Shown piece by piece: positions 40,794 through 57,935 of a stretch of DNA of 64,000 bases (positions within the stretch are counted from its first letter, which is position 1; the number at the start of each line of letters is the position of its first letter). The stretch covers positions 634 through 64,633 of the forward strand of contig JAFSWF010000028.1 in assembly GCA_017444615.1 (NCBI GenBank), given 5' to 3'. Below the pieces are notes generated by a model that was not told the DNA's origin, did no database searches, and saw nothing but the letters and a program-made list of their open reading frames with translations. Both the position numbers and the translations under genes were made by a program. The DNA comes from Paludibacteraceae bacterium (GTDB lineage Bacteria > Bacteroidota > Bacteroidia > Bacteroidales > Paludibacteraceae).

Positions 40794-41786
40794 ATGGCAA
40801 AGATAGGTGTTTTTGATAGTGGATACGGAGGATTGACGATTTTGAAGGAGATCCGCAAGGTGTTGCCTGAGTACGATTATCTGTACTTGGGCGATAATGC
40901 CCGTGCGCCGTATGGAACACACTCATTTGAGGTCATTTATCAGTACACACTGCAGGCGGTTAGGTACTTGTTTGAACAAGACTGCGCGCTGGTTATTCTT
41001 GCTTGTAATACCGCCTCCGCCAAAGCTCTGCGTACTATCCAACAAAAGGACTTGCATGGGCCTAACCCCAACCCTTCCCCAAAAGGAAGGGAGCCACATA
41101 ATGTACTCGGCGTTATTCGTCCTACCGTCGAAGCGGTGCCAAGTATTACGAAAAACGGCCATATAGGTATTTTAGCCACGCCTGCCACGGTCAGTTCGGA
41201 GAGTTATGTGCTGGAATTGGAGAAAATTCAAGAACACAAACCGGCTTCTTTGTCCGAGGGCACGATTAACGCTTCGCGATTTTCGCCTGACAAAATACAG
41301 CGTACAGACCGATTTACTATCACCCAACAAGCTTGTCCTATGTGGGTGCCGCTCATCGAAGCGGGTGAGCATCATAGTGCAGGTGCTAAGTATTTTGTGG
41401 GAGAGTATTTGCGGCAGATTTTCGAGAAAGATCCTGAGATAGACACGCTTGTGCTTGGTTGCACGCACTACCCGTTGCTGAAGGACGAGATTGATAAGTG
41501 GCTGGCTTATCGCCATGAGATAGAAGAATCGGAATTCCCGAATCCTATCGAAACGCCCCAAGTGACCACGATTGCGCAAGGGGAGTTAGTGGCGCATAGT
41601 TTGGCGGATTACTTGGTTCGCCACCCCGAATACAGAGAGCAACTCTCGCAAGGTGGTTCTTGCCACTATCTGACCACAGAAAATGCGGACCGCTTTTCGC
41701 AATCCGCTTCGCTTTTTATCGGTTCGCCTATTCAGGCGCAAACCATTATTTGCCAAGAGGGCCTTTTTATCCAAGAAGTTGATTGA
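40794..41786 (+). CDS. murI: glutamate racemase
   Basis: IGVFDSGYGGLT, ILACNTAS, VLGCTHYPLL. 330 aa, about 50 aa longer than the racemases I remember. Contains a hairpin element insert (PNPNPSPKGREP). Confidence 0.9.
   Translation: MAKIGVFDSGYGGLTILKEIRKVLPEYDYLYLGDNARAPYGTHSFEVIYQYTLQAVRYLFEQDCALVILACNTASAKALRTIQQKDLHGPNPNPSPKGREPHNVLGVIRPTVEAVPSITKNGHIGILATPATVSSESYVLELEKIQEHKPASLSEGTINASRFSPDKIQRTDRFTITQQACPMWVPLIEAGEHHSAGAKYFVGEYLRQIFEKDPEIDTLVLGCTHYPLLKDEIDKWLAYRHEIEESEFPNPIETPQVTTIAQGELVAHSLADYLVRHPEYREQLSQGGSCHYLTTENADRFSQSASLFIGSPIQAQTIICQEGLFIQEVD
41060..41094. repeat. GC-rich hairpin mini-element, in frame in murI
   Basis: GCCTAACCCCAACCCTTCCCCAAAAGGAAGGGAG. Stem CCCTTCC/GGAAGGG. 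Read as PNPNPSPKGRE. Confidence 0.8.
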
Positions 41787-42207
41787 AAGAAGGGATAACC
41801 GTTGAGAACTCGCATCCCGTAGGTGTTATTGCGGCTACAATCGATTGCGGTCCGTTGTGTAAGAGCAAAAAAGGCACCTCTAACCGGCGGTTATAAATCA
41901 ACGCTTGGTCAAGCGTTTTTTGTGTAAGTGGGACCGTCTCTGCTTTGCATTCAATGAGCATTAGAGGTTGGAGGTCCGCGTTATACACCACGGCATCAGC
42001 ACGGAGGCGCCTACCCCCATCCCCTCCTTGAAGGGAAGGGAGTTGAAACGCCACTTCTACGGCGATGAGTGATGTAGGATAACCTAATTGCTCCACCAAA
42101 CGGTGAAGCAATTGTTGGCGCACCCACTCTTCGGGAGTCAATCGCACCCATTTATGCCGCCATTCGCAGAAGATCTGCTCTTTATTTTGGTTTATGCGTG
42201 TGCGCAT
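41767..42207 (-). CDS. HsdR_N-like PD-(D/E)xK nuclease-fold protein
   Basis: 146 aa. The E...D...IECK arrangement is typical of type I restriction enzyme R N-terminal-domain proteins. Hairpin element insert (SLQGGDGGR). 20-nt convergent overlap with murI. Confidence 0.55.
   Translation of the reverse strand: MRTRINQNKEQIFCEWRHKWVRLTPEEWVRQQLLHRLVEQLGYPTSLIAVEVAFQLPSLQGGDGGRRLRADAVVYNADLQPLMLIECKAETVPLTQKTLDQALIYNRRLEVPFLLLHNGPQSIVAAITPTGCEFSTVIPSFNQLLG
42009..42042. repeat. GC-rich hairpin mini-element, in frame in the HsdR_N-like gene
   Basis: GCCTACCCCCATCCCCTCCTTGAAGGGAAGGGAG. Read on the minus strand as SLQGGDGGR. Confidence 0.8.
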
Positions 42208-42236
42208 AAACGTTACATTGTTAAGCAGTTAACTTG

Positions 42237-43994
42237 TTATTTCAAGTAATTATCCTTGAGGGAGCATGTGCGGTTGAAGATGAGATGATTCGGCGTGGAG
42301 TCATCATCGACTACAAAATAGCCTTGCTTGAGGAATTGGAAGTGATCCTGCATTTTCGCCTGCGCCAAGGATGATTCTACTTTGGCGGTTACTATCTTTA
42401 GGCTATCCGGGTTGAGAAGGTCTCTGAAATCCCGTTCATCCGCACTGGGATTCTCGACTGCAAAGAGTCGGTCATAGAGACGAACCTCCGCATCCAACGC
42501 CGAGCCGCATTCTACCCAATTGATGGTAGCTTTGGTCTTACGGTTTCCGCCTTCTGTGCCCGATTTAGAGGTAGGATCGTAGGTGGCATAAACGGTTGTA
42601 ATCTTGCCCTCAGCATCCTTCTCACAGCCTGTGGCTTGGATAATATAGGAGGCTTTGAGGCGCACCTCACGCCCACCCGGGCTAAGGCGGTAGAACTTAT
42701 TATCTGCCTCTTCGAGGAAGTCTCCGCGCTCGATCCACAGTTCAGGTCCGAAAGGAATCTCGCGTGTGCCCAGTTCAGGATGTCCGTCGATGTTTTCGGC
42801 GATTAACACCTCTCTCCCGTCTCCCCCAGACCTCTCTCCTTGGGAGAGGGTTGGGGTGATGTGATAATTGGTAATCACCAGTTTGACGGGATCGAAGATG
42901 GCGCAGACACGTGGGGCGGTCTCTTTGAGGTCCTCGCGGATGGTGTGTTCCAAGAGGCCTTGGTCAATCATTCCTTCTACTTTGGTATAACCGATTTTAT
43001 CCATGAACGTACGGATGGATTGCGGCGTATAACCACGGCGACGCAGACCACAAACGGTCGGCATACGCGGATCATCCCAACCGGCTACGAGTCCTTCTTT
43101 GACGAGTTGCAACATCTTCCGCTTGGACATGACGGTATAAGTAATGTTCAGGCGGTTGAACTCCCGCTGCTTGGGTCGATAATCGGGTCCGTAAGGCGAT
43201 AAGCCGCAGAAATTCTCGCCGGTTATCTGGTCCAAGAAATAATCGTATAAGGGGCGGTGAACCTCAAACTCAAGCGTACAGATGGAATGCGTTACGCCTT
43301 CGAAATAATCGCTCTGACCATGTGCAAAATCGTACATGGGATAGACGTTCCAACGTCGTCCGGTACGATGGTGCGGATGGGCGGTGATGATACGATACAT
43401 AATCGGGTCACGGAAGTGCATGTTGGGGTTGGCCATGTCTATTTTGGCACGAAGAACCATCTTACCATCTTCTATCTCCCCGCGTTGCATAGCTTCGAAT
43501 AGACGCAAGTTCTCCTCAATCGGACGATCGCGGTAGGGGGAGTTAATGCCCGGTTCCGCAGGTGTACCTTTCTGCTCGGCGATCTGCTCCGATGTTTGTT
43601 CGTCCACATAGGCTTTGCCGGCTTTGATGAATTGGATGGCGAGGTTATAGAGTTGTTCAAAGTAATCGGAGGCATAGAAGATCTTGCCCCATTTGAAGCC
43701 TAACCATGCGATGTCGCGTTCGATGGTCTCCACATATTCGGTATCTTCCTTAGCGGGATTCGTGTCGTCAAAACGGAGGTTGCAGACACCGTTATATTTT
43801 TCGGCAATACCGAAATCCATGCAGATGGCTTTGACGTGTCCGATGTGCAGGTAACCATTCGGTTCCGGCGGGAAACGGGTTTGGATACGACCGTTATTGA
43901 CTCCTTCTGCCAGGTCTTTCTCTACTATTTGCTCGATGAAATTGAGCGATTTTTCTTCTTTGCCCTCAACGGGTGTGATTACTTCTTGTGCCAT
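42237..43994 (-). CDS. glnS: glutamine--tRNA ligase
   Basis: HIGH (PEPNGYLHIGH) and VMSKR class I signatures. Hairpin element insert (LSQGERSGGDGRE). Confidence 0.95.
   Translation of the reverse strand: MAQEVITPVEGKEEKSLNFIEQIVEKDLAEGVNNGRIQTRFPPEPNGYLHIGHVKAICMDFGIAEKYNGVCNLRFDDTNPAKEDTEYVETIERDIAWLGFKWGKIFYASDYFEQLYNLAIQFIKAGKAYVDEQTSEQIAEQKGTPAEPGINSPYRDRPIEENLRLFEAMQRGEIEDGKMVLRAKIDMANPNMHFRDPIMYRIITAHPHHRTGRRWNVYPMYDFAHGQSDYFEGVTHSICTLEFEVHRPLYDYFLDQITGENFCGLSPYGPDYRPKQREFNRLNITYTVMSKRKMLQLVKEGLVAGWDDPRMPTVCGLRRRGYTPQSIRTFMDKIGYTKVEGMIDQGLLEHTIREDLKETAPRVCAIFDPVKLVITNYHITPTLSQGERSGGDGREVLIAENIDGHPELGTREIPFGPELWIERGDFLEEADNKFYRLSPGGREVRLKASYIIQATGCEKDAEGKITTVYATYDPTSKSGTEGGNRKTKATINWVECGSALDAEVRLYDRLFAVENPSADERDFRDLLNPDSLKIVTAKVESSLAQAKMQDHFQFLKQGYFVVDDDSTPNHLIFNRTCSLKDNYLK
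42807..42858. repeat. GC-rich hairpin element (longer, composite), in frame in glnS
   Basis: CACCTCTCTCCCGTCTCCCCCAGACCTCTCTCCTTGGGAGAGGGTTGGGGTG. Stem CTCTCC-TTG-GGAGAG with outer CCCCA/TGGGG. Read as TLSQGERSGGDGRE. Confidence 0.75.
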
Positions 43995-44000
43995 ATATAC

Positions 44001-44717
44001 TTATCCTTTTACTATTCCTCTGGGAGATGATTTGATGAAATTGATGATATAATCGCGTTCCGGTGTTTGCGGTAACGTTGTTTCTATTTGCGCAAGCGCT
44101 TGGGTTGTATTGAGTCCACTGTTATAGAGGAGGCGGTACACCTCTTGGATAACATGTATTTGTTCGGGTGTAAAGCCTCGGCGGTTAAGGCCTACGGAGT
44201 TGATGCCGCAGAAGGCAATGGGGTCGCGTGCGATGATAGCATAAGGCGGGATGTCTTTGTTCACTTTCGATCCTCCTTGTACCATACAATGTCCGCCGAT
44301 ATGCGTGAATTGGTGCACCAACGAACCTCCGCCGATGATGGCATAATCATCGACCACCACCTCTCCGGCGAGTTGCGTAGCGTTGGACATAATGATATTA
44401 TTCCCCAACACACAATCATGCGCCACGTGGCAATAGGCCATGATCAGGTTGTTATTACCGATGACGGTCTTTGTTTTGGAGGCGGTGCCGCGGTGGACGG
44501 TAACGAACTCTCGCAACACACAGTTATCGCCGATGATGGTCCATGTTTCTTCGCCTTGGAACTTCAGATCCTGCGGCACTGCGCCAATGACGGCAGAAGG
44601 AAAAACATGGCAGTTATCGCCAAGAATGACATTATCGTCAATGTAAGCAAAGGCATCAATGGTGACATTCTTGCCCAGTTGAGCTTTCGGGCTCACATAT
44701 GCTAAAGGAGAAACCAT
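44001..44717 (-). CDS. lpxA: acyl-ACP--UDP-N-acetylglucosamine O-acyltransferase
   Basis: Hexapeptide-repeat beta-helix plus helical C-terminus. Position after lpxC. Confidence 0.9.
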   Translation of the reverse strand: MVSPLAYVSPKAQLGKNVTIDAFAYIDDNVILGDNCHVFPSAVIGAVPQDLKFQGEETWTIIGDNCVLREFVTVHRGTASKTKTVIGNNNLIMAYCHVAHDCVLGNNIIMSNATQLAGEVVVDDYAIIGGGSLVHQFTHIGGHCMVQGGSKVNKDIPPYAIIARDPIAFCGINSVGLNRRGFTPEQIHVIQEVYRLLYNSGLNTTQALAQIETTLPQTPERDYIINFIKSSPRGIVKG

Positions 44718-44752
44718 ATATATGTACGATTTGATGATTTACGATGTACGAT
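44718..44752. repeat. TACGATT-type array filling the lpxC-stop to lpxA-start spacer
   Basis: ATATATGTACGATTTGATGATTTACGATGTACGAT. Confidence 0.8.
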
Positions 44753-45658
44753 TTATTCGCTTAGGATTTGATTGCGCAGGCGGCGCACGCACTGGGTGTT
44801 GAAGGTATGGCCGGGTTTATAGGCCGTTATTTTCCCCTGCAGGCGTAATCCGAGCAACGACAGGTCACCGATGACGTCTAACAGTTTATGTCGCGCGGGT
44901 TCGTTGAGGTAGTTTAGTGGAGAGAGGTAACCTAATTTCTGTGCGTCCATATGCGGTTGTCCCAACTTATCGCAGAAATAATCCATTCCTTCTTGCGACA
45001 TCTCGGTTTCATAGATGACAAGGGCGTTCTTCAGGTCTCCTCCTTTGATAAGCCCCACACGTAGCAGGGGTTCTATCTCTCGGACGAAGCAGAAAGTGCG
45101 TGCGGAAGAGATCTCTTGGGGATAGGTGCTCAAATCGCGGAGCGTAGCATGTTGTTCGCGCAGGATATTCGAGTTAAACGCAATCGTCACATCTACCTCG
45201 TAATGGTCGCAGGGTTCGATACGCATCAGGTGTCCGTGCTCAGAGATATACTCAATGGGTTCTTTCACCACATAAACCTGTTGTTCCGCCTCTTGTTCTT
45301 GCAAGCCTACTCGTTGTATCTCGCGAACGAATAACCGCGCGCTGCCATCCAAAATAGGCATCTCCGGTGCATTCACATCGATGATACAATTATCCACGCC
45401 CATGGCATACAGCGCACTCAGGGAGTGCTCTACGGTAGATATTTTCCACTTACCGCGCTCCAACACCGTTCCTCGTTCTGTGCCTGCCACATAATCTGCC
45501 AATGCCTGATAACAGGGTTGTCCCGGCAGGTCAATACGACGAAGACACACACCGGTGTTTTCCGGTGCCGGATGGAAGGTGGCTGTTACTTGCAAGCCGG
45601 TATGCAAACCGATTGAAGCAAGGGTAAATGGCTCTTTGATAGTATGTTGTTTACTCAT
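44753..45658 (-). CDS. lpxC: UDP-3-O-acyl-N-acetylglucosamine deacetylase (stand-alone, no FabZ domain)
   Basis: [32 protein letters not shown]. 301 aa ending directly in a repeat spacer. Confidence 0.9.
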
Positions 45659-46659
45659 TTCTCTTTGGCTGCTTGTTTAAATTTGACTACTGCACGTCGC
45701 CATAATGCGGCATCGATGGCGGGGTAGCCCATGTACATGCCGGGTTTGCGAATAGAGTTAGGAATACCTGTCTGTGCCCCGAAAATACAGTTATCCGCAA
45801 TCTCGATATGACCTGCTACGCCTACTTGTCCCGCTAAGATACAATGTTTGCCGATTTTCGTACTACCGGCGATGCCTACTTGTGCGCAGAGGAACGTGGA
45901 CTCGCCTACCTCCACATTATGCGCCACTTGCACTAAGTTGTCCAGCTTCGCATTCCGACGAATGATAGTGCTACCCATCATAGCTCGGTCAATCGTGGTG
46001 TTGGCACCGATTTCTACATCATCTTCGATGATCACATTGCCTATCTGCGGTATTTTTTGGTTCACGCCTTGCGCATCGGGTTCAAAGCCAAAGCCGTCTG
46101 CCCCTACTACCACGCCGGCATGCAGGATACAATGGGCTCCGATTACGCAATGGGCATAGACCTTCACTCCAGCATAGAGAATCGTATTATCGCCGATGGT
46201 CACATTCTCTCCTATATAGACGTTGGGATAAATCTGCACGCCTTTGCCTAAACGCACGTTCTTGCCTATATAGGCAAACGCACCAATATAAGCATCCTCC
46301 GGAATGGTCACTCCTTCGGAGATGAAAGAGGGTTGTTCGATGCCTTGCTTTTTAGGGTTCATCGCTTTGGCAACGAGGCTCAGTAACTGTCCCATTGCTC
46401 CGCGGGCATTCTCCACAAGAATAATGGCTAATTGACAATTGATAATTGACAGTTGTTCTTCGCTGATTAGTGAGCGAGTCATGAGAACAACCCCTGCATG
46501 CGTTGTTTTGAGATACGGAAGATATTTGTCCTCTGTAATGAACGAAAGATGGTGAGTCTGTGCGGACTCAATGGGGGCAACGTCAGACACTTTTGCCTGC
46601 GTATTACCGTGAAGTTCTCCTCCTAATAAAGCAGCTATTTGTTGTGCACTAAATTCCAT
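45655..46659 (-). CDS. lpxD: UDP-3-O-(3-hydroxymyristoyl)glucosamine N-acyltransferase
   Basis: N-terminal uridine-binding domain plus hexapeptide repeats. In-frame [10 protein letters not shown] array insertion. Confidence 0.9.
46423..46457. repeat. AATTGAY-family array, in frame in lpxD
   Basis: AATGGCT AATTGAC AATTGAT AATTGAC AGTTGTT. Minus strand encodes [13 protein letters not shown]. Confidence 0.85.
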
Positions 46660-47878
46660 CTCTATACTTAAATAAATATCGTTTAATCGGTTTGCGGGTC
46701 AGTGACTCCAGATCCAAGATCTCACTTGCTTCCGCGATGTCACGCACCGTTCCATCCGAGTACAAAATGCCGATGGAATCGGCCTTTTCGCTATACGTGT
46801 TGCTGGTAGATATATGTTCTGTCCAGCAATAAGTGGCATCAGTTTGTGAGATTCCGAGAGTCTTAGCAAAATGCGCATTGAGTGCGTTTTTCTCTTCGTC
46901 TGTTAGGGGTGCATCCACTAATTCTCCGCGGAATAACTGACGATTGATGAAAGCAGTACTCAGTGCACGTAGCACTTGGTCATCACTACTCATCCATGCT
47001 TTGATGGCGGATAGCACATCGGTATCATCCAAAATAGCGTACTGGTCAAGCGCCGCACTATGCGGGGCAAACATATCTGCCGTTACCGGTTGATACAAGA
47101 AATAGCGCAAAGCCGGAGAGCAGAAAAGTTGACCATTATGACGCGCAATCTCTTTTGCGCGCGTGAGTATTTTAATAAGGTGTTGCTCCGCAGCCACCGA
47201 AGTCTTATGCAAGTAAACCTGCCAATACATTAACCGACGTGCCACCAAAAATTTTTCTACGGAGTAGATTCCTTTCACTTGTACCACTAATCGGTCGTCG
47301 CGCACATCGAGCATCTTAATGAGTCGCTCGCTCGCCACACGTCCCTCCTGCACGCCCGTAAAGAACGAATCTCTACAGAGATAATCCATCCGGTCTACAT
47401 CCAATTGACTGGAGATCAGTTGATGCAAGAAATGTTTGGGATACTCATTCTTGAAGATAGCAATTGCTTGCGTTAGTTGACCATTCAAGTCTTCGTTAAT
47501 GCGCTCCATCATCATCAGCGAGATCTCTTCATGCGTGATACCATCCACTAAGGTGTGCTCCAATACATGCGAGAAGGGTCCATGACCAATATCGTGCAAT
47601 AAGATAGCTATCATAGCCGATGTCGCTTCCTCTTCTGATATGTCGATGCCTTTGAGTCGCAGGGTATGTATGGCTTCGCTCATTAGATGCATGGCGCCCA
47701 ACGAGTGACCAAACCGGCTATGTTGAGCACCCGGGTACACCAAATAGGACAGTCCCAACTGACGAATACGACTCAATCTCTGCACATAGGGATGTTGCAA
47801 CACATCGTAGATCAAGTCATTGGGAATGGACAAGAATCCAAAGACCGGGTCGTTAATTATTTTGCGTTTGTTTACCAT
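46649..47878 (-). CDS. HD domain phosphohydrolase (dGTPase-like)
   Basis: [34 protein letters not shown]. Start ATG 47878 (track 47947 would overlap cysS). Confidence 0.8.
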
Positions 47879-47882
47879 GTTA

Positions 47883-49373
47883 TCACAAGCTCCACTCAAA
47901 TCCGTCTTTTGTATCTTTAATCTGGAACCCAAGCGCAGAGAGACCATTACGAATGGTGTCGGAGGTAGTCCAGTCTTTGTTCTTTTTTGCTTCTAATCGA
48001 ATACCTAAAAGCAGGTCAATAGCGCCGTGGAAAGCTTTAAGCCTACCTCCGTCTCCTCCCTGAAGGGAAGAGCCATCTTCGAGTCGGAGACCGAGGATGT
48101 CGATGGCGTAGGTTTTCCAGATGTCACGCAGTTCGTTGAGGTCGGCCTCGCTGATGGTTCCTTTGCCGTCCCAAACGGTATTGATGGCGCGCACGGAATC
48201 GAAGAGAGCGGCGATGACGAAGGGCGTATTGAGGTCGTCGTCCATGGCTTCTTGGCAACGGGTGCGCAACACCTCACCCAAGCCCTCTCCTAAGGAGAGG
48301 GATGTTTCCGCAGAAGGCTTGATTTTCAGCAGTCGGGCGTAAGCTTCTTGGAGGCGTTGGAGACCTTTCTCTGCGGCTTCGAGGGCTTCGGAGGAGAAAT
48401 CCACCGTGGAGCGATAGTGCGCTTGGAGGATGAAGAGGCGGATGACCATCGGCGAGAAGGGTTTGGAGAGCAGCGGATGTTCGCCCGAGAAGAACTGCTC
48501 GAGGGTGATGAAGTTGTTGTACGACTTGCCCATCTTCTTACCCGCGATGGTGATCATGTTATTGTGCATCCAGTAATGCACGGATTCCTTACCAAGGGCA
48601 GCACAGGATTGTGCAATCTCCGCTTCGTGGTGAGGGAAGATGAGATCCAATCCGCCGCCGTGGATATCGAACTGCTCGCCGAGGTATTTTGTGCCCATGG
48701 TGGAGCACTCCATATGCCAACCAGGGAAACCTTCTGACCAAGGGGATGGCCAATGCATGATATGCTCAGGAGAGGCTTTCTTCCAAAGGGCGAAATCGTA
48801 ACTGTGTTTCTTCTCGTTTTGTCCGTCTAATTCGCGGGTTTCTGCAATGATGTCATGCAGATTACGTCCGCTGAGTTTGCCATAGGGATAGTCTTTGGCA
48901 TATTTCTCGACATCCATATAAACGGAGCCATTAGAAACATAGGCATAGCCGCGGTCGAGGATCTTCTGAACGAAGGCTATCTGCTCGATGATATGTCCCG
49001 AAGCGTGGGGTTCGATGGAAGGGGGCAACACATTGAGGGCAGCCATGTCGCGGTGGTAACGGTTGGTGTAGTACTGTACTACCTCCATGGGCTCAAGTTG
49101 CTCAAGGCGCGCTTTCTTGGCTATCTTATCTTCGCCTTCATCGGCATCGTGCTCGAGATGACCAACATCAGTGATGTTACGCACGTAACGCACTTTGTAT
49201 CCGAGGTGCAACAAATAGCGATAGAGCACATCGAAGGTGATCGCCGGTCGTGCGTGTCCCAGGTGAGCGTCACCATAAACAGTAGGGCCGCAGACATACA
49301 TGCCTACGTGACCTTCGTGGAGGGGTTTGAATGTCTCTTTGTAGCGAGACAAGGAGTTATAGATTTCTAACAT
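47883..49373 (-). CDS. cysS: cysteine--tRNA ligase
   Basis: [16 protein letters not shown] (HIGH) and KMGKS. Two hairpin element inserts (SLSLGEGLG and SLQGGDGGR). Confidence 0.95.
48041..48074. repeat. GC-rich hairpin mini-element, in frame in cysS (copy 1)
   Basis: GCCTACCTCCGTCTCCTCCCTGAAGGGAAGAGCC. Read as SLQGGDGGR, the same peptide as at 42009-42042. Confidence 0.8.
48270..48303. repeat. GC-rich hairpin mini-element, in frame in cysS (copy 2)
   Basis: CACCTCACCCAAGCCCTCTCCTAAGGAGAGGGATG. Perfect 8-bp stem CCCTCTCC/GGAGAGGG. Read as SLSLGEGLG. Confidence 0.8.
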
Positions 49374-49456: not shown

Positions 49457-49488
49457 AAAATTTTCAATAATCATTCCATAGAATCAGA

Positions 49489-49513: not shown

Positions 49514-49540
49514 CTTCATTAACAATTCCATTCAGCTCAT

Positions 49541-49945: not shown

Positions 49946-49957
49946 TAACTTTCAGCT

Positions 49958-51877
49958 TTATGACTCTTCAAAATCATCTACGGCATCTTCTTCGATGACG
50001 AGGTTGTCAATGATGAAGTTCTGACGCTCGTTGGTGTTTTTGCCCATGTAGAACGCGAGAAGCTCGTTCACACTGTCTTCTTTACGCAGTTTGACTTGAT
50101 CCAAACGAATCTCTTTGCCTATAAAACCCTTGAATTCATCGGGAGAAATCTCACCGAGTCCTTTGAATCGTGTGATCTCCGGTGTTTTGATTTTGGCGAT
50201 GGCTTTTTGCCGTTCTTCCTCCGAATAACAATAGACCGTTTGGTTCTTGTCCTTGACACGGAAAAGCGGTGTTTGGAGGATGTAGACATGTCCCTTTTTG
50301 ACGAGATCGGGGAAGAACTGCAGGAAGAAAGTGAGCATCAACAGGCGGATGTGCATACCGTCCACATCGGCATCGGTGGCGATGATGACTTTATTATAGC
50401 GTAGTTCATCGAGTCCGTCTTCTATATTGAGGGCAGACTGCAGACAGTTAAACTCTTCATTCTCATAGACGACAGATTTGCTTAAGCCATAACTGTTGAG
50501 TGGTTTGCCTCGGAGAGAGAAGACAGCTTGCGTACGCACGTCACGGCTCTTGGTGATGGAGCCGGAGGCGGAAAGACCCTCGGTGATAAAGATACAACTC
50601 TCCAAACGCAGGTCATCATCGGCATCTTTAGCGGATTTGACGGGTTTGGGGTCGTTGAGGTGAATTTGGCAATCACGCAGTTTGGGATTATTGACCAAGT
50701 TCTTTTTTGCCCGTTCGCGCGCGGCTTTGGTTACACCCGCTATCGCCTTACGCTCTTTCTCGGAGTCTTGGATCTTCTGCAACATAATCTCCACCGTCTG
50801 CGGGTTCTTATGGAGGTAATTATCCAAGTGCTGCTTAACGAAATCATTGACGAATTTATTAACGCTAATACCGCCGGTAGGGCTCATATCTCGCGAACCC
50901 AGTTTCACTTTCGTTTGGCTTTCAAAGACAGGTTCTTCCACATTGATAGCGATGGCGCCTACGACACCATTTCGGATGTCAGCGAGTTCTTGGTTTTTAT
51001 TGAAGAACTCCTTGATGGTTCGACCGATCGCTTCGCGATAAGCGGCCTGGTGTGTTCCTCCTTGGATGGTGTGTTGACCATTGACGAAGGAGAAATACTC
51101 ATCGCTATTTTGGTCGGTGTGCGTGAGCGCTATCTCGATATCCTCTCCTTTGAGATGGATGATGGGATAGAGCGGTTCTACCGTCATGTTTTCGTTTAAC
51201 AGGTCTAACAGGCCGTTCTTGGAAACGAATTTCTTGCCGTTATAAGAGAGTGTCAAACCTGTGTTGAGGTACGCATAGTTACGAAGTAATTCTTCGATAT
51301 AATCATCGCGGAAATGGTAGTTCTCAAAAAGACCTTTGCAGTCATCGGGTACGAACTCGATGATGGTTCCTCGTTTTTCGCTGCCTGTATAATCGATGAT
51401 ACCGGTATCGGCTGTCAGTTTGCCTTGACTGAACTCCGCCTTGCGGGTCTTGCCTTCCCTGAATGACTGCACGGAGAAATAACTAGAGAGGGCATTGACA
51501 GCTTTGGTACCTACGCCGTTCAAACCGACGGATTTCTTAAAGGCTTTGCTATCGTATTTACCGCCGGTATTGAGGACGCTTACGACTTCAATCAGTTTGC
51601 CCAAGGGGATACCACGACCGTAATCGCGCACGCGTACTCGACCTTCGGTTACTTCCACTTCAATCACTTTTCCTTCGCCCATGCGGAACTCATCGATGGA
51701 GTTATCGATACTCTCTTTGATGAGCACGTAGATACCGTCATCGCTATGCGAGCCATCGCCTAATTTACCGATGTACATACCCGGGCGGCGACGGATATGC
51801 TCCATGTCGTCGAGGTGGATGATGTGTTCGTCTCCGTAGTCCACAGGGGTGTTTTTTATCTCTAATTCTTCTGCCAT
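49958..51877 (-). CDS. parE: type IIA topoisomerase subunit B (topoisomerase IV ParE-like)
   Basis: GHKL ATPase ([25 protein letters not shown]) and TOPRIM ([21 protein letters not shown]). The N-terminal pattern looks more ParE-like than GyrB-like, from memory. Confidence 0.8.
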
Positions 51878-51905
51878 AATTTCGTCACTTTCTCAAAAAC
51901 GGGTG

Positions 51906-51937
51906 CAAAATTACAAAATAATTTTTACATATGCAAA
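51906..51937 (-). promoter_or_regulatory. Bacteroidota sigma-A promoter for parE
   Basis: Minus strand: TTTG (51934-51937), N20, TAATTTTG (51906-51913). Confidence 0.65.
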
Positions 51938-51947
51938 TTTTTTTGGT

Positions 51948-53408
51948 TTAGATTAGTCCTTTTTCTTTGGCTAACTGCATCAAATAGGCTTTTGCGGGTT
52001 CGTATTCATTAGGAATGACGCCATCTAATATTGCATCTTTGATAGCGGCTTTGAGTTCGCCTACGGTTGAACAGGGCTCTAAGTGTAGTATTTCCATGAT
52101 TTCATCGCCTTTGACGGGTGGTTGGAAATTCCGAATTCGGTCGCGTTCTTCGAGTTCCACCATCTTCTGCCGAACGAGCTGATAGTTCCGATGGAATCGG
52201 GCTTTTTTGTCCTCATTGCGGCTTGTGATGTCGGCATCGCAGAGAAGCATCAGGTCGTCTATATCATCTCCCGCTTCAAAGAGGAGTCGCCTCACGGCGG
52301 AGTCAGTAACGGTGTCTTCGATGAGGTTAATGGGGCGCATATGCAGGTCTACCATCTTCCGCACGTATTCCATTTTTTCGTTTAGGGGTAGTTTCATTTT
52401 GGCGAAGATTTTCGGTATCATCTTCGCGCCGATGTAGTTATGATTGCGGAAAGTCCACCCCGCTTGCGGGTCCCAGGCTTTGCTTTTAGGTTTGCCGATA
52501 TCGTGTAAAAGCGCCGCCCAGCGAAGCCAGAGACAGCTGTTGGCTGTTGGCTGTTGGCCATTGGCTCGTTGTAATTCTGCCACATTATCGAGAACTTGGA
52601 GGGTGTGATAGAAGACATCTTTATGTCCGCGACCTTCTTTCACTTCCACTCCTTTGAGTGCTGATAATTCCGGGAAGATAAGGGGTAAAAGTCCGGTTTT
52701 ATCGAGCAGGATCCATCCTTCTGAAGGCCGACGGGAGAGCATGATTTTATTCAGTTCATCGGCGATACGTTCACGGGTGATAATATGGATGCGTTCTTTA
52801 TTGCGGGCGATGGCATCGAAGGTCTCGGGGTGGAGGTTGAAGCCTAATTGGGTAGCAAAACGGACCGCTCTCATCATTCGGAGCGGATCATCGGAGAAAG
52901 TGATGTCCGGATCGAGCGGTGTGCGGATGATACAACGGTCTAAATCGCCGATTCCATCGAATAAATCCACTAATTCGCCATAGCGGTTTTTATTGAGACA
53001 AAGGGCTAAGGCGTTGATGGTAAAATCTCGTCGGCTGAGATCTTCTTCGAGTGTGCCGTTTTCTACAATAGGATTGCGACTATCGTGTTGATAACTTTCC
53101 TTGCGTGCTCCGACAAATTCTAACTCAAGGTCACCTCGCTTGACTTGCGCGGTGCCGTAGGTCTTGAAGACGGACAGATGAGCTTTGCGGCCAAGGCGTT
53201 TAGCCATTGCTTCAGCAAGGCTTATACCAGAACCGACGACTACAACGTCTATGTCGGTAGAAGGGCGATGGAGAATTAGGTCGCGTACCCAGCCGCCAAC
53301 TACGTAACATTCGAGGCCTAACTGATCCGCCTCTTTGCCTACCATGGCTAAGGTTGGCTGTTGATCATTAGCCATGAACCACGGGTGTATAATCGCATTC
53401 CAATCCAT
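51948..53408 (-). CDS. cca: CCA-adding tRNA nucleotidyltransferase with HD domain
   Basis: GGWVRDLIL, DIDVVV, LLHDIGKP. In-frame ANGQQPTANS array insertion. Consistent with the tRNA genes here lacking an encoded CCA. Confidence 0.8.
   Translation of the reverse strand: MDWNAIIHPWFMANDQQPTLAMVGKEADQLGLECYVVGGWVRDLILHRPSTDIDVVVVGSGISLAEAMAKRLGRKAHLSVFKTYGTAQVKRGDLELEFVGARKESYQHDSRNPIVENGTLEEDLSRRDFTINALALCLNKNRYGELVDLFDGIGDLDRCIIRTPLDPDITFSDDPLRMMRAVRFATQLGFNLHPETFDAIARNKERIHIITRERIADELNKIMLSRRPSEGWILLDKTGLLPLIFPELSALKGVEVKEGRGHKDVFYHTLQVLDNVAELQRANGQQPTANSCLWLRWAALLHDIGKPKSKAWDPQAGWTFRNHNYIGAKMIPKIFAKMKLPLNEKMEYVRKMVDLHMRPINLIEDTVTDSAVRRLLFEAGDDIDDLMLLCDADITSRNEDKKARFHRNYQLVRQKMVELEERDRIRNFQPPVKGDEIMEILHLEPCSTVGELKAAIKDAILDGVIPNEYEPAKAYLMQLAKEKGLI
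52537..52571. repeat. 7-nt-period array (CTGTTGG x3, CCATTGG, CTCGTTG), in frame in cca
   Basis: Minus strand encodes RANGQQPTANS. Confidence 0.85.
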
Positions 53409-53420
53409 AGTAAGTGCTGT

Positions 53421-54812
53421 TTAATCGGGTTCGGGAGGTGTAGTAGCCACCCACGTTTCTTGTTCATGAATGAGTCGATGAAATCGGGATATTTGTATCC
53501 ATAACATGATTGCCGCGGTGACGGCCGCCATCAGGTCGCTTATGGGAATAGACCACCATACGCCATCTAAGGGGTCATCAAAGAGCATCGGTATCGTCAG
53601 CAATAAGGGGATGAGGTATAGTACTTGTCGGGTTAGGCTCAAGAAGATTGACTTGCCTGCCATTCCGATGGAAGTGAAGAGGTTACCTGTTACCATTTGA
53701 AAACCGATGATGAGCATAGAGGAACATATGATACGCATTGGTTTGATGGTACTTTCGATGAGGAGCGTGTCGTGTGTAAATATGCGTGTGACCCATTCGG
53801 GGAAGGCTTCGCCTAAGATAAAAACGAGTCCCATCACTCCTGTGGCATAGAGGCTGGTTAGGTAGAACGAACGCAACATGCGGTGGTATTGTTTGGCGCC
53901 GTAGTTGAAGCCTGCGATGGGTTGCATGCCTTGGTTAAGACCCATCACTATCATTGCAAAAACGAAGGTCAGACGGTTGATGACGCCGTAGGATGCAATG
54001 GCAAAATCGCCTCCATAACGCTTGAGTTGGTTGTTGATGATGACTACCACGAAACAATGTGCTATATTATAGAGGAAAGGCGCCATTCCGATGGCTAAAG
54101 CACGATACGTGATACCTTTGTCAAGTACCCAAATTCCTCGATGAAATCGGACTAATTCGTCTTTATCCAAGAATTTGGTAATCTGCCAAACTACCGCCAC
54201 GGCTTGTGAGATGACGGTGGCTAAAGCCGCTCCGCGAACACCCATATCGAGGGCGAAGATGAAGATGGGGTCAAGGATTATATTGATGGTAACAGCGACG
54301 ATGGTTGCAGTCATGGAGAAACGAGGATGTCCCGCGGAGCGGAGCATGCTATTAAGACCAAAGTAAATATGGGTGAGGATGTTTCCGAAAAGGATGATCT
54401 CCATATATTCGTGCGCATAGACGATGGTATCTTCGCTGGCACCGAAAGCCATTAGAATAGGGTCTAACCAAATCAGTCCTACGGTCATTACGATTGCTGA
54501 AAGGATGATGTTAAGGACGATGACATTGCCAAGAACCTTATTGGCTTTGTCGTAATCCCGTTCGCCAAGGTAGATGGCCAGTAAGGAAGAGGCGCCAACG
54601 CCTACTAAGGAGCCGAAGGCTGCGCAGATGTCCATAAAGGGTTTGGCGACGGTAAGTGCGCCGAGCGCCAATGCGCCACATCCATGACCGATGTAGATGG
54701 AGTCAACTATGTTGTATAGCGAACTGGCCGTCATCGCAATGATGGCGGGGAGTGCATACTTAAAGAGCAGTTTATGCACCGGGGCAGTTCCTAATTCTGT
54801 AGTATTTGACAT
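53421..54812 (-). CDS. MATE family efflux transporter
   Basis: 12-TM profile. N-terminus LLFKYALPAIIAMTASSLYNIVDSIYIGHG is typical of MATE. Confidence 0.85.
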   Translation of the reverse strand: MSNTTELGTAPVHKLLFKYALPAIIAMTASSLYNIVDSIYIGHGCGALALGALTVAKPFMDICAAFGSLVGVGASSLLAIYLGERDYDKANKVLGNVIVLNIILSAIVMTVGLIWLDPILMAFGASEDTIVYAHEYMEIILFGNILTHIYFGLNSMLRSAGHPRFSMTATIVAVTINIILDPIFIFALDMGVRGAALATVISQAVAVVWQITKFLDKDELVRFHRGIWVLDKGITYRALAIGMAPFLYNIAHCFVVVIINNQLKRYGGDFAIASYGVINRLTFVFAMIVMGLNQGMQPIAGFNYGAKQYHRMLRSFYLTSLYATGVMGLVFILGEAFPEWVTRIFTHDTLLIESTIKPMRIICSSMLIIGFQMVTGNLFTSIGMAGKSIFLSLTRQVLYLIPLLLTIPMLFDDPLDGVWWSIPISDLMAAVTAAIMLWIQISRFHRLIHEQETWVATTPPEPD

Positions 54813-55837
54813 ATCTTTTCAAACGCTTCGGCGGCCGGATGACCTGTTTGCAAAGCGATGGGTGTTCCTTCGTCTCCGCCTTCGCGAATGGATTGTACGA
54901 GTGGTATTTGTCCCAATAGGGGGATGTTTAGTTCTTGGGCTAATTGTTTGCCGCCGTCGCGACCGAAAATATAGTATTTATTGTTGGGGAGTTCCGCCGG
55001 CGTGAACCATGCCATGTTCTCGATAAGACCGAGGATGGGTACGTTGATTTTTTCGTTTTGGAACATCTCCACTCCTTTTCGGGCATCTACTAAAGCGACC
55101 GGTTGAGGTGTAGTGACGACGATTACGCCCGTCAATTGTATCGATGAAATCAGGGTTAAATGGATGTCGCTGGTACCCGGAGGCAGGTCGATGAGGAAAT
55201 AATCCAATTCGCCCCAATGTACATCTTCGATAAGTTGTTTGATGGCGTTTGATGCCATGCCACCCCTCCAGATGATAGCCTGGGAAGGGTCCACAAAGAA
55301 ACCGATGGACAGCATTTTGACGCCATATTGTTCGATGGGTTCGATGAGTGTTCGTCCGTCTAAATCGACAGAATATGGCCTTGCGTCCTCGCAATGGAAC
55401 ATCTTCGGCATGGACGGTCCGTGAATGTCAGCATCGAGTAATCCGACGCGAAATCCTTTGTTGGCTAAGGAGACTGCTAAGTTAGCTGCCACGGTGGATT
55501 TGCCGACACCTCCTTTGCCGCTATGGATAGCGATGACGTGCTTTGCATGTATTGGTGATTGGTGATTGGTGGTTGGTGATTTGATATTCTCCTTAACGAA
55601 CTTGGGATGGATGTGCGCGGAGATATTAGGGTCTATGTAGGTTTGTAACGCCACTTCTGAGGCTTTAACGACCGATTTGAGGAAGGGGTCGTTCTCCTTT
55701 GGGAAGATGAGCGAGAAACTTACCTCAAAGCCAGATATGCGGATGTCATCTTCGAGCATTCCGCTTTCGATGAGATCTTTGCCGGTTCCGGGGTAACGTA
55801 CATGCCGTAGGGCGTCTATTACTTGTTGAGGGTACAT
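54791..55837 (-). CDS. Mrp/NBP35 family Fe-S cluster carrier ATPase
   Basis: IAIHSGKGGVGKST deviant Walker A and an N-terminal DUF59-like domain. In-frame SPTTNHQSPI array insertion. Start ATG 55837 (track 55969 rejected). Confidence 0.9.
   Translation of the reverse strand: MYPQQVIDALRHVRYPGTGKDLIESGMLEDDIRISGFEVSFSLIFPKENDPFLKSVVKASEVALQTYIDPNISAHIHPKFVKENIKSPTTNHQSPIHAKHVIAIHSGKGGVGKSTVAANLAVSLANKGFRVGLLDADIHGPSMPKMFHCEDARPYSVDLDGRTLIEPIEQYGVKMLSIGFFVDPSQAIIWRGGMASNAIKQLIEDVHWGELDYFLIDLPPGTSDIHLTLISSIQLTGVIVVTTPQPVALVDARKGVEMFQNEKINVPILGLIENMAWFTPAELPNNKYYIFGRDGGKQLAQELNIPLLGQIPLVQSIREGGDEGTPIALQTGHPAAEAFEKICQILQN
55551..55585. repeat. 7-nt-period array (ATTGGTG x3, GTTGGTG, ATTTGAT), in frame in mrp
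   Basis: Minus strand encodes KSPTTNHQSPI, just upstream of the P-loop. Confidence 0.85.
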
Positions 55838-55868
55838 GAAATAGGGGTGTGTTTTGATTTTGCGGCTG

Positions 55869-55900
55869 CAAAGGTACAAAAAAAATCGCACATATGCAAA
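55869..55900 (-). promoter_or_regulatory. Bacteroidota sigma-A promoter for mrp
   Basis: Minus strand: TTTG (55897-55900), N20, TACCTTTG (55869-55876). Confidence 0.7.
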
Positions 55901-55977
55901 TAAAAAATTTGCTACAAAAAGTATATATATACTATGTATATATATAGTAAGAATGACTTTTTTGCACAAAAAGGGCG

Positions 55978-56021
55978 GTTATCCTATGGGTATCCTATGG
56001 TTATCCTATGGGTATCCTATG
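55978..56021. repeat. 11-nt-period tandem array x4 (GKTATCCTATG)
   Basis: Four contiguous units, followed by an 11-nt-phased G-rich stretch (about 56058-56100) and the palindrome GGCAAAT-GGC-ATTTGCC. Confidence 0.9.
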
Positions 56022-56193
56022 GTAAGGGTTCGTGTCGGTCTCGACTTTTGTCGTGAAAGGGGGCGGAAATGGGCGGGTAAGGGGTGTGGCGAGGGCGGCA
56101 AATGGCATTTGCCTGAAATAGACATAGAAGAAAGGGATTAAATTCCGGAACAATGGAAAAAGATGCGTGTTTTGCAAAAAAAATGGCAAATTA

Positions 56194-56225
56194 TTTGCAT
56201 ATGTGCAAAATTTTTTGTACCTTTG
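56194..56225 (+). promoter_or_regulatory. Bacteroidota sigma-A promoter
   Basis: TTTG (56194-56197), N20, TACCTTTG (56218-56225); ATG at 56299. Confidence 0.7.
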
Positions 56226-56298
56226 CGCGTTTTTTGAGGAGGAGGTATGGGAAGCAAACTAAAACTTGAAAGAAAAACATATTATAACCGTATAAATT

Positions 56299-56847
56299 AT
56301 GATTTATAAACTGACATTTTCGTGTGAAGAAGGCGATCCGAATTTCCGCCGAGTATTTGAGGCCGATGCGGACGCTACGTTCTTAGATTTGCACAATGCA
56401 ATTCTGAAATCCGTTGACTATCCGGATGATCAAATGACATCTTTCTTCCTTTGCAACGACGAGTGGGAGAAGGGTCAGGAAGTGACGCTGGTTGAGATGG
56501 ATTCGAGTTTTGAGTACGACAACATGGTGATGAATGAGACGCGTTTGAGTGACTTGCTGGAAGAACAAGGTCAACGGTTGATTTACATCTTCGATCCGAT
56601 GTTCGAGCGCTATTTCTTCGGTAGTCTGAAGGAGATTAAAGCGGGTTCGATGAACGGTGTGGAGTGTGTAGAAAGCCGTGGTAAAGCGCCGAAACAGCTA
56701 AAGAGCGAGGATCCGTTTGCCGGTTTAGGAGGCAAGGGCGGCGATGACTTCGAGTTCGACGATGAGTTTAAGGACGAGTTGGATCTGAACGACATCGACA
56801 TGGAAGGCTTCCAAGATTTGAGTTGGGAAGACGGAAGCATGTTTTAA
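56299..56847 (+). CDS. pRiA4b ORF-3-like family protein with acidic tail
   Basis: IYKLTFSCEEGDPNFRRVFEADADATFLDLHNAI resembles the PF07929-type N-terminal block, from memory. C-terminus is D/E/F rich. Confidence 0.45.
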   Translation: MIYKLTFSCEEGDPNFRRVFEADADATFLDLHNAILKSVDYPDDQMTSFFLCNDEWEKGQEVTLVEMDSSFEYDNMVMNETRLSDLLEEQGQRLIYIFDPMFERYFFGSLKEIKAGSMNGVECVESRGKAPKQLKSEDPFAGLGGKGGDDFEFDDEFKDELDLNDIDMEGFQDLSWEDGSMF

Positions 56848-56880
56848 TTGATAATTGATAATTGACAATTGATAATTAAC
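56846..56880. repeat. 7-nt-period array (AATTGAT x2, AATTGAC, AATTGAT, AATTAAC)
   Basis: Starts inside the TAA stop of the upstream gene and sits before miaA. Confidence 0.9.
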
Positions 56881-56891
56881 AAAGCGTTCTA

Positions 56892-57935
56892 GTGGCTTTC
56901 GTGCAAGGTTTGGAGTCTGTGCGGATTCAGCAAATTTGTACCAAGCCCAACAAACTTTTTGTGCATAGAACTTTATTGTTGATAGTAGGTCCGACGGGGG
57001 TTGGAAAGACGGAGTTGGCGTTGCGGGTAGCGGAACGGTATGGTAGTCCGATTGTGAATTGCGACAGCCGTCAGGTGTACCGTGAGATACCCATTGGCAC
57101 CGCAGCTCCTACGGCGGAGGAACTGGCTCGGGTTAAGCACTATTTCGTGGGTTGCAAAGAGTTGGAGGAAGACTACAATGCCGGTCAGTACGAACGCGAC
57201 GCGTTGGCGTTGTTAGACCAACTGTTTGAAGACCATGAGGTCGTGGTGATGAGTGGCGGTTCGATGCTGTATGCTGATGCCGTTTGTGACGGATTAGACG
57301 ATATTCCGAATGTGCCGGAGGACATTCGAAAGAAAGTAGCCTACCCTCGGTCCCTCCCAAGAGGGAGGGAAGAAAGTCGCGAAGAATGGCTGAGTTGGTT
57401 GCAGGCGGAGGTGCAACGATTAGATCCGGAGTATTGGAAGATCGTGGACCAACATAATCCTGCCCGCTTGGCGCATTGCGTAGAGTTGTGCTTGACGACA
57501 GGAAAGCCGTATTCATCGCTGCGTACAAAGGAATCAGGAATCAGGAGTCAGGAGTCAGGAGACCGGCCGTTTCGGATTATTAAGGTAGGTTTAGAGCGTC
57601 CGCGGGAAGAATTGTACGCACGAATCAACCGTCGTGTAGAACAGATGATTGCGGACGGGTTGGTGGAAGAGGCGAAACGGGTTTATCCAAAGCGAGCTTT
57701 GAATAGTTTACGAACGGTAGGTTACCGCGAACTATTTGCTTATTTCGATGGTGAGTACGATTTGGAGCGCGCCATTGAGTTGATTCAACAAAACACGCGT
57801 CACTATGCCAAGCGTCAGATAACCTGGTATCGACGCGACAAAGAGATACATTGGCTACAAGCCGAAAGAGATTATGAAACGAATATACGTATTATTGACC
57901 ATTTGCTTGGCGATGGTGGCGTGCAAGAAGAATGA
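56892..57935 (+). CDS. miaA: tRNA dimethylallyltransferase
   Basis: GPTGVGKT, DSRQVYREIPIGTAAP. Start uncertain (GTG 56892 or an internal GTG near 56962). One hairpin insert and one heptamer array lie in frame. 62-nt overlap with the next gene. Confidence 0.9.
   Translation: MAFVQGLESVRIQQICTKPNKLFVHRTLLLIVGPTGVGKTELALRVAERYGSPIVNCDSRQVYREIPIGTAAPTAEELARVKHYFVGCKELEEDYNAGQYERDALALLDQLFEDHEVVVMSGGSMLYADAVCDGLDDIPNVPEDIRKKVAYPRSLPRGREESREEWLSWLQAEVQRLDPEYWKIVDQHNPARLAHCVELCLTTGKPYSSLRTKESGIRSQESGDRPFRIIKVGLERPREELYARINRRVEQMIADGLVEEAKRVYPKRALNSLRTVGYRELFAYFDGEYDLERAIELIQQNTRHYAKRQITWYRRDKEIHWLQAERDYETNIRIIDHLLGDGGVQEE
57339..57372. repeat. GC-rich hairpin mini-element, in frame in miaA
   Basis: GCCTACCCTCGGTCCCTCCCAAGAGGGAGGGAAG. 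Perfect 8-bp stem TCCCTCCC/GGGAGGGA. Read as AYPRSLPRGREE. Confidence 0.8.
57530..57564. repeat. 7-nt-period array (GGAATCA x2, GGAGTCA x2, GGAGACC), in frame in miaA
   Basis: Encodes KESGIRSQESGD. Confidence 0.9.

Follow-up and report, generated by a model that had tools for sequence, protein, structure and literature searches.

In a 64,000-nt stretch of DNA from a Paludibacteraceae bacterium (assembly GCA_017444615.1, contig JAFSWF010000028.1, positions 634-64,633 of the forward strand; hereafter the window), five housekeeping genes carry six units of one hairpin repeat family of about 35 nt, and all six units are read in frame. The host genes are a murI-like gene, a small gene with a restriction-enzyme-like N-terminal domain (HSDR_N_2), glnS, cysS and miaA. 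The units are probably non-autonomous mobile mini-elements resembling repetitive extragenic palindromic (REP) sequences, surviving within genes only where they have landed in permissive loops. The family as a whole suggests a kind of miniature mobile DNA that has not been described before. The initial annotation of this DNA had placed the genic hairpins in six genes; cysS holds two of the units (sites A and B), which reduces the number of hosts to five.

In aligned Bacteroidales copies, a unit consists of an all-pyrimidine arm of 7-9 nt, a loop of 3-6 nt that is frequently TTGAG or TTGTG, a complementary all-purine arm and, after a further 2-3 nt, a G-rich tail of about 12 nt, GGGG(A/T)G(G/A)GG(T), on the 3' side of the purine arm. 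What the initial annotation took for a separate leader is the reverse complement of this tail. Both single units (34-39 nt) and inverted doublets (about 57-63 nt) occur, the latter in the glnS of the window and at cysS site B of the relative L007, and the segments that they encode are 11-17 residues long. We built a covariance model, R1, from 34 aligned Bacteroidales units, including the six of the window, and scanned the window with it without filters. The scan returned six sites at 27-41 bits (E-values of 2e-7 to 2e-4) and an inverted half-unit in glnS. All six have the pyrimidine/purine-arm hairpin and the G-rich tail that define the family, with scores as expected of members of the training set; because they match by construction, the independent content of the scan is that it found no further copy in the 64-kb window beyond the six sites and the half-unit. 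A seventh hairpin had originally been assigned to the same architecture, at 2043-2064, but it has no tail, its arms are not purely pyrimidine and purine and it scores only 6.6 bits (E-value of 8.4), so that the six genic members alone are retained.

The reverse-complemented tail motif GCCTAMCYYC occurs five times in the window against 0.41 expected, and GC-rich perfect hairpins with one all-pyrimidine arm are far commoner there than in shuffled sequence. The fifth match to the motif, at 45904, is not accompanied by a hairpin, and R1 did not detect it. Folding is significantly better than that of shuffled sequences in four of the six units (z of -2.2 to -3.4) and weak in those of HSDR_N_2 and cysS site A. 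No Rfam family matched any unit. Strand bias was considered as a sign of single-strand transposition and set aside: the five single units lie on one strand and the doublet on both, which is not significant, and GC skew was uninformative.

The unit in the murI-like gene (41056..41094, minus strand) pairs CCCTTCC with GGAAGGG, continues into the tail GGGTTGGGGTTAGGC on the minus strand and encodes GPNPNPSPKGREP; it scores 33.4 bits with R1 (E-value of 8.8e-6) and has a folding z of -2.4. The host gene (40794..41786, plus strand) belongs to the Asp/Glu racemase family (Pfam PF01177). In the HSDR_N_2 gene (41767..42207, minus strand; PF13588, E-value of 2e-27) lies a single unit at 42005..42043 on the minus strand, which reaches 37.9 bits (E-value of 8.9e-7) with a weak hairpin (z of -0.3 to -0.95). 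The gene for glutaminyl-tRNA synthetase, glnS (42237..43994, minus strand; assigned by Pfam and by a match to PDB entry 1o0b, E-value of 5e-189), contains an insert at 42804..42866 that had been regarded as one element. R1 resolves it into a doublet of two inverted units, one full (42828-42866, plus strand, 34.9 bits) and one partial (42804-42852, minus strand, 16.8 bits, E-value of 0.046), which jointly encode ITPTLSQGERSGGDGRE. Both units of cysS, the cysteinyl-tRNA synthetase gene (47883..49373, minus strand; Pfam, and PDB 6ujd with an E-value of 8e-158), are single and on the minus strand: the one at site A (48037..48075) scores 27 bits (E-value of 2.4e-4) and forms a weak hairpin, and the one at site B (48267..48305) scores 40.6 bits (E-value of 2.2e-7) with a folding z of -3.0 to -3.4. 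The unit of miaA, at 57335..57373 on the minus strand, encodes AYPRSLPRGREE and scores 35.6 bits (E-value of 2.9e-6; folding z of -2.2 to -2.7). The host (56892..57935, plus strand; PF01715) encodes tRNA dimethylallyltransferase; from a deposited protein of 324 residues, as against 347 in the open reading frame (ORF), we infer a start at 56961. Inspection of the sequence at each site bore out the genic coordinates and peptides first given, as well as the claim that the units are free of stops and are read in both orientations and in more than one frame. The same peptide, SLQGGDGGR, is encoded by the HSDR_N_2 and cysS site A units. Proteins 100% identical to the MiaA and MurI of the window are found in a Paludibacteraceae metagenome-assembled genome (MAG) at NCBI (P0121 for MiaA).

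Comparison with relatives at 71-93% identity revealed presence, absence and replacement of the inserts at the same positions in CysRS, MiaA, MurI and GlnRS. Across 120 CysRS homologues at 85-93% identity, hypervariability is confined to the two insert positions. Some of these homologues carry the unit of the window, others carry units of other subfamilies (TTPSLLGEGRGEA, APSLEGRGGER, SLEGRSGGVSDG), and still others have peptides derived from tandem heptamers (EMSNDKSQMSNK, MTNDQSQMTNK, QSPITNDQSPI, DQPSAVSHQ), an eroded form (SAASQDGDGAK) or short forms (QGGDEGKQ, TTVEV). The DNA of nine relatives confirmed these states, with true tandem heptamers of TCACCAA, ATGACCA and CAGCCGT. Site A is variable or empty in relatives, and site B holds a unit of the same subfamily in the opposite orientation in L007, other subfamilies in further relatives, heptamers in L005 and nothing in L003 and L209. 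The states of the two sites assort almost independently of each other, and a neighbor-joining tree of the 120 sequences is too star-like for gains and losses to be counted reliably. Among distant CysRS proteins, the peptide was absent from all 25 of the representatives inspected, and both linkers vary in length across all 97. One CysRS that is 52% identical to that of the window (P0367) has a heptamer-like peptide, TLTTDNQQLTTASQQLTA, at the site B linker, so that the use of this hot spot by short repeats extends far beyond the lineage of the window.

GlnRS has an uninterrupted GEGE turn in Escherichia coli (NYQGEGEMV) and in L003 (NYEGEGETL), which both retain the ancestral state; relative to it, the 57-nt doublet of the window amounts to a net gain of 39 nt. 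At the same site, another Paludibacteraceae MAG (RGIG4295, locus L106) has a different, single unit. The two units of L106, at 784-822 and 4941-4979, lie in glnS and in an lpxD-like gene and, on our reading of the sequences, resemble each other closely from end to end. Five further units (1324-5049), four of them inside genes, are present in an 8-kb stretch of this MAG (L054). The insert of MurI is an insertion of 13 residues relative to Aquifex MurI, and among 120 relatives the site is hypervariable, ranging from LIKDKKV to many peptides derived from units or heptamers. In MiaA, a form about 10 residues shorter (VQQHYEQEG) is found in the closest relatives and the unit is kept in more distant ones. 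For HSDR_N_2, a gene that adjoins glnS in L003 as it does in the window, L003 has an unrelated peptide of nearly equal length (EIVNPQSSD-RKS, a change of +1 residue). Thus the prediction of the initial annotation that the sites are variable linkers agrees with the orthologues of CysRS, GlnRS, MurI and MiaA, which lack, replace or vary the insert at the same positions, and the peptides are not ancestral sequence shared with E. coli GlnRS, L003, Aquifex MurI or distant CysRS.

In an AlphaFold2 model of the CysRS of the window (mean predicted local distance difference test score, pLDDT, of 93.5), both inserts lie in low-confidence loops between helices: site A falls in the loop 426-441 between helices H408-425 and H441-463, with residues 435-441 at pLDDT <50, and site B in the coil 350-363 between two helices. 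The inserts of GlnRS and MurI appear as gaps in alignments with solved structures and, judged by the general folds of these enzymes rather than by coordinates, presumably correspond to a turn in GlnRS and a helix-to-strand loop in MurI.

The long ORF stays open through every genic copy, both in the window and in about 20 further Bacteroidales genes, whose products include a methyltransferase, an ABC ATPase, a second GlnRS and a GH13 alpha-amylase-family enzyme (by Pfam) and IspD-like, Kbl/BioF-like and LpxD-like proteins (by motif reading only). A Bacteroidales unit is open in 4.9 of the six frames on average, compared with 3.6 for units of other phyla and 3.9 for random 37-mers. As frames are kept and stops are absent, we argue that the segments are translated and not removed. 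Among copies that had not been used to choose the loci, seven are genic and three intergenic, and the corresponding numbers in the window are six and zero; on these counts most copies in the Paludibacteraceae lineage are intragenic, unlike those of classical REPs.

The family extends well beyond Bacteroidota. A scan of one genome per species for an exact 21-nt core, YCCCTCCCTTGWGGGGAGGGR, gave at least 120 matching stretches, whereas about two are expected by our own estimate from the size of the collection and the degeneracy of the pattern. Among the matches listed, the core occurs in at least 13 phylum-level groups, comprising Nitrospirota, Desulfobacterota, Alpha-, Beta- and Gammaproteobacteria, Actinomycetota, Melainabacteria, candidate phyla radiation groups, Planctomycetota, Elusimicrobiota, Nitrospinota, Aquificota, Chloroflexota, FCPU426, Aminicenantes and several Bacteroidales. 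The flank is conserved across phyla in the same set: the hairpin is followed by ATTAA, ATGAA or GTTAG and then by GGGGAGGGTGA. Outside Bacteroidota, the listed matches lie mostly in short ORFs and hence are intergenic, and the linker usually has a stop in one frame.

Clustering of the ORFs in the 120 listed core loci, which had been selected by the DNA pattern, identified a single protein cluster adjoining the units. This protein of 110-140 residues is present in about 10 loci and belongs to DUF559 (PF04480; Pfam E-values of 1e-38 to 1e-43). Full genes bracketed by units were found in L015, L029, L044, L082, L085, L096 and L119 and fragments in L020, L043 and L111. The tails of the bracketing units face the gene. 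The tail of the upstream unit forms a Shine-Dalgarno-like sequence just before the start codon, and the inverted downstream unit often supplies the C terminus of the protein (…HPPLNPLPSREGE). A reciprocal test used 80 metagenomic DUF559 genes picked by a protein pattern only (L128-L207). Perfect hairpins with a pyrimidine and a purine arm lie within about 130 nt of the gene on the upstream side in 56 of 77 cases and on the downstream side in 59 of 76, the background density being 0.39 per kb, and the loops on the two sides are reverse complements of each other. R1, trained on Bacteroidales units, gave 104 matches in these 80 loci, 60 of which have a match adjoining the gene, with a strict polarity (upstream, 32 on the plus and 5 on the minus strand; downstream, 42 on the minus and 1 on the plus strand). 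The clade of DUF559 and Vsr has a PD-(D/E)XK nuclease fold and includes a group I intron homing endonuclease (PMC3424549). We found no paper linking DUF559 to such repeats, and a text search of the literature with the unit sequence returned only human and c-MYC matches.

Further features of the copies from other phyla were recorded alongside. In the non-Bacteroidota loci of L008-L127, the G-rich tail, AAGGGGAGGGTGAT, looks like a lengthened Shine-Dalgarno sequence, and there is often an ATG 5-9 nt beyond it. With its four G-tracts, the purine strand of the cross-phylum consensus, GGGGAGGGG-ATTAA-GGGGAGGG, could adopt a quadruplex or triplex structure, and both of its purine blocks are potential partners for the pyrimidine arm. 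In L062, L124, L042, L075, L027 and L035 (several Nitrospirota and Aquificota), another conserved hairpin, CCCGCCGCAGAGACGGCGGGGTATCC-TAAAATCT, stands about 10-40 nt upstream of the unit. Rfam matches domain V/VI of a group II intron directly upstream of the unit in L124 (63-139); group II introns may use some units as targets or lie next to them. One Nitrospirae MAG, WY3.bin132, has three DUF559 cassette loci, two of them degraded, which suggests a small selfish cassette that proliferates and decays.

We interpret the units of the window as probable REP-like mobile elements that depend on a function supplied elsewhere. Copies would have been dispersed through the chromosome of the Paludibacteraceae lineage; those falling into genes would persist only if the frame is kept, no stop is introduced and the site is a permissive surface loop or linker, and would then be translated as 11-17 extra residues. 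Over time a site could exchange its copy for one of another subfamily or for a heptamer array, or the copy could be inverted, decay or be lost, and this turnover would make the site a hypervariable indel hot spot. Our data directly show membership of one family, dispersal, reading in frame, indel polymorphism, the position in loops and, for other phyla, the link with DUF559; movement of the units, its mechanism and the part played by DUF559 or any other enzyme in Paludibacteraceae are proposals. Since DUF559 is bracketed in other phyla by inverted units just as REPs bracket the REP-associated tyrosine transposase (RAYT), it is the best candidate for an enzyme that cuts and spreads them. A more specific proposal, which we put forward tentatively, is that the units may be the non-autonomous partners of an unrecognised system in which DUF559 plays the role of RAYT, with solo units lodged in the loops of housekeeping proteins in Paludibacteraceae and at least some of them under selection at the nucleotide level.

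Several observations weigh against mobility of this kind. The 64-kb window has no transposase, Y1 transposase, integrase or DUF559 gene. With tblastn, no DUF559 was detected in L001-L007 or in about 20 Bacteroidales loci of the pattern scan, and none was present among the Pfam labels of called genes in L208-L213, the sole check made there; for the lineage of the window we therefore infer the link to DUF559 from other phyla, and the association between DUF559 and the units is itself correlative. Alignments of glnS, cysS and miaA indicate that the units overwrite a few native codons rather than being cleanly added, and these alignments contained neither a clean empty/filled pair with defined junctions nor a target-site duplication. 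Orthologous copies are more alike than paralogous ones, and copies within the window differ by about 20-30% (our own estimate from the alignment), so that there is no sign of recent transposition in the lineage. Lastly, the conservation of synonymous sites in the cysS site A unit suggests constraint or another process rather than neutral selfish DNA. A 36-nt block of this unit, GGCTCTTCCCTTCAGGGAGGAGACGGAGGTAGGCTT (48039-48074), is identical in the window, L002, L208 and L209, although elsewhere in their cysS genes 42-49% of the codons for the same residue differ and site B is in four different states. No identical run in the gene is longer than this block, and the codons on either side of it vary; of the same-residue codon columns, only 28% are the same throughout the four lineages, which gives a P of about 2.4e-7 for the block. 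Homogenization among copies does not account for this identity, given that orthologous copies are the more alike, and constraint on the DNA or RNA sequence and precise re-insertion are both possibilities. The miaA unit has a milder deficit, with 2 of 10 synonymous differences compared with 54% outside the unit.

These conservation data are what speaks for exaptation, that is, for at least some units, the cysS site A copy in particular, being selected for a role at the DNA or RNA level. They could act as an mRNA hairpin that tunes translation or inter-domain folding, as a protein-binding site or as a G-rich structure. The stem of the site A unit contains a G-U wobble when read on the sense strand, which is also the strand on which it folds better (-5.6 versus -3.1 kcal/mol), and the tail of units from other phyla also serves as a Shine-Dalgarno-like sequence, 5-9 nt ahead of the start codon. 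Nevertheless, many lineages have lost, eroded or replaced the unit with no visible consequence, as seen in SAASQDGDGAK, the heptamers and the empty sites; units also occupy genes that are unrelated to one another, with orientation and frame differing between copies, hairpin formation is poor in two of the six and Rfam offers no match. We therefore regard such a role as rather doubtful, and it would in any case be compatible with a mobile origin. The overwriting of native codons raises another alternative, templated repair or gene conversion instead of transposition, in which a break or stalled fork in a GGNGARGG-like tract of a purine-rich linker would be mended by copying another genomic unit through microhomology, with few codons overwritten and the same sites re-used. 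At two of the sites the native sequence is indeed purine-rich and similar to the purine arm (GlnRS GAAGGCGAAGGCGAG and CysRS CAAGGCGGCGATGCCGGAAAG), which may reflect microhomology-aided integration or mere tolerance of turns rich in Gly and Glu. The native GlnRS sequence GAAGGCGAAGGC is replaced, the length of HSDR_N changes by only +1 residue, and the "empty" CysRS allele (QGGDAGK, CAAGGCGGCGATGCCGGAAAG) is already like the arm and tail of the filled one (QGGDGGR). Hosting of different subfamilies and orientations at one site, and the near-independent assortment of the two CysRS sites, are also in keeping with repair. The microhomology was seen at two sites only, however, where tolerance of Gly/Glu-rich turns could produce it, there is no direct evidence of conversion tracts, and copies within a genome are not homogenized, and on balance we judge templated repair to be unlikely.

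If instead the hairpins had formed in place, by slippage or template switching in low-complexity linkers, they would not be copies of one another. The sites are hypervariable linkers that also expand heptamers, and a purine-rich native sequence could seed an arm, but this origin is largely refuted by the loop and the 12-nt tail, which, together with the arm, are common to unrelated genes, genomes and phyla. R1, moreover, has no further match in the window and none in the relatives L003, L005, L210 and L213, and the enrichment of the tail motif is not what local origin predicts; we consider it very improbable. It is hardly credible that the segments are missing from the mature proteins through removal from the mRNA or ribosome skipping. 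Stable hairpins can promote bypassing in other systems and we found no support for it here, whereas every genic copy keeps the frame and is stop-free in the frame used, which would be unnecessary if the segment were removed, and units of Bacteroidales are more open to translation than those of other phyla. The absence of such a hairpin from 21 kb of L003 and the lack of R1 matches in L003, L005, L210 and L213 also speak for the preferred interpretation, that of REP-like elements held in permissive loops.

Among known systems, the Rickettsia palindromic elements (RPEs) were the match proposed in the initial annotation. They are said to have been described by Ogata and colleagues in 2000, RPE-1 reportedly measuring about 100-150 bp and encoding 30-50 residues. 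The two groups share the dispersal of palindromes in frame within conserved, often essential, genes, where they add surface segments absent from orthologues, and in this respect the comparison stands. The present units, by contrast, are shorter (34-57 nt against 100-150) and have homopyrimidine and homopurine arms with a G-rich tail, and they occur in at least 13 phylum-level groups, whereas the descriptions of RPEs come from Rickettsia; units so different in length and composition are implausible as members of the RPEs. In size and organization they stand nearer to REPs and their doublets and to the small dispersed repeats of cyanobacteria. A behavioral parallel is offered by cyanobacteria, whose small dispersed repeats (SDRs) of about 21-27 nt are attributed to work by Elhai and co-workers in 2008 and whose short tandemly repeated repetitive (STRR) heptamers were reportedly found by Mazel and co-workers in 1990. 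There too, tiny hairpin repeats and tandem heptamers insert in genes and replace each other at the same site, and the heptamers TTGGTCA and CAACAGY are common to both. The SDRs belong to another phylum and have other sequences, occupation of housekeeping-enzyme loops in frame is far more prominent in our units, and we know of no gene described as associated with SDRs. In behavior, it is these SDRs with their heptamers that the units resemble most.

REPs and their doublets (REPINs), with the RAYT that they accompany, include intragenic GTAG/CGTC members, some of them in tRNA synthetase genes (PMC3733652; PMC3116915). Like our units, they are GC-rich stem-loops of 20-40 nt, dispersed as singlets and inverted doublets and in part intragenic, and in REPtrons a small enzyme gene is bracketed by inverted units, an arrangement that our family displays only in other phyla. 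The differences are that REPs are mostly intergenic and the Paludibacteraceae units mostly intragenic, that the gene bracketed by our units encodes a DUF559 PD-(D/E)XK nuclease and not a Y1 HUH transposase, and that the units have no GTAG/CGTC abutting the stem, the conserved flank being the 3' G-rich tail that begins 2-3 nt past it. A GTAG (in GGTAGGC) is present in three of the six window units, and GTTAGGC in the murI copy, 8-10 nt away from the stem on its 3' side, where the tail ends; other units end in GGGGTT or AGAGGT in Bacteroidales and in GGGTGA across phyla. The G-quadruplex heptamers of Xanthomonas and Nostoc (PMC4692102) resemble the family in having dispersed G-tracts near the ends of ORFs, four of them in our cross-phylum consensus, and differ in that the window copies do not have four G3 tracts; the idea of a quadruplex is for this reason treated as no more than speculation. 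The units work like RPEs and intragenic REPs (Di Nocera et al., PMC3733652) but belong to neither. What appears to be new is the intragenic predominance in a Bacteroidota lineage, for which, in agreement with the initial annotation, the literature searched yielded no described equivalent, together with the cross-phylum family bracketing DUF559 and the nucleotide-level conservation of an in-frame copy.

At the CysRS, MurI and MiaA hot spots of relatives, heptamer arrays take turns with hairpin units, and the window itself has about 23 tandem heptamer arrays of 2.3-5 copies each, 7 being by far the most frequent period. Arrays within ORFs are located at 3974-3999, 4781-4796, 5132-5169, 10444-10479, 26895-26924, 46430-46455, 52536-52571, 55551-55581, 57529-57561 and 59092-59123, and those in intergenic regions or at gene ends at 4196, 13862, 24821, 29239, 30365, 44722, 49387, 56845, 60406 and 62136. 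At least 10-12 are read in frame, giving peptides such as ITNNQSPITNH, NDQRQTTNDK, SPTTNHQSPI, WLLVIGHWSL and, in miaA, ESGIRSQESGD. The heptamers TTGGTCA, TTGGTGA and CAACAGC of the window are similar to the cyanobacterial STRR heptamers. Longer tandem repeats are found at 40455-40614, between the ORF that follows dnaN and murI, where 4.3 copies of the 11-nt ATATGAGCTAT precede 6.5 copies of GTAAGTGCAAA, and at 55977-56023, upstream of 56299, where a 22-nt repeat is present in 2.1 copies; judging by their sequence, both sets look like iterons. Otherwise the window is an unremarkable housekeeping region (dnaN, uvrB, pgk, ddl, bamA, uppS, radA, lpxACD, glgA and others).

To our knowledge, in-frame selfish palindromes in essential genes have so far been seen chiefly in Rickettsia and in a few proteobacteria rich in REPs, as something of a curiosity. 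Here such colonization is seen on a large scale in a free-living gut and rumen lineage of Bacteroidota, accompanied by in-frame heptamer arrays. The inserts account for hypervariable segments and odd peptides in Bacteroidales proteins, and masking them is advised in phylogenomics. The conserved copy in cysS provides a test case for selfish DNA exapted inside a coding sequence. For DUF559, a large family, the association supplies a concrete role that lends itself to testing, and it suggests a new way in which REP-like repeats could originate; if the proposal is true, the DUF559 system would be a second, mechanistically different "REPtron", spread across more than a dozen phyla.

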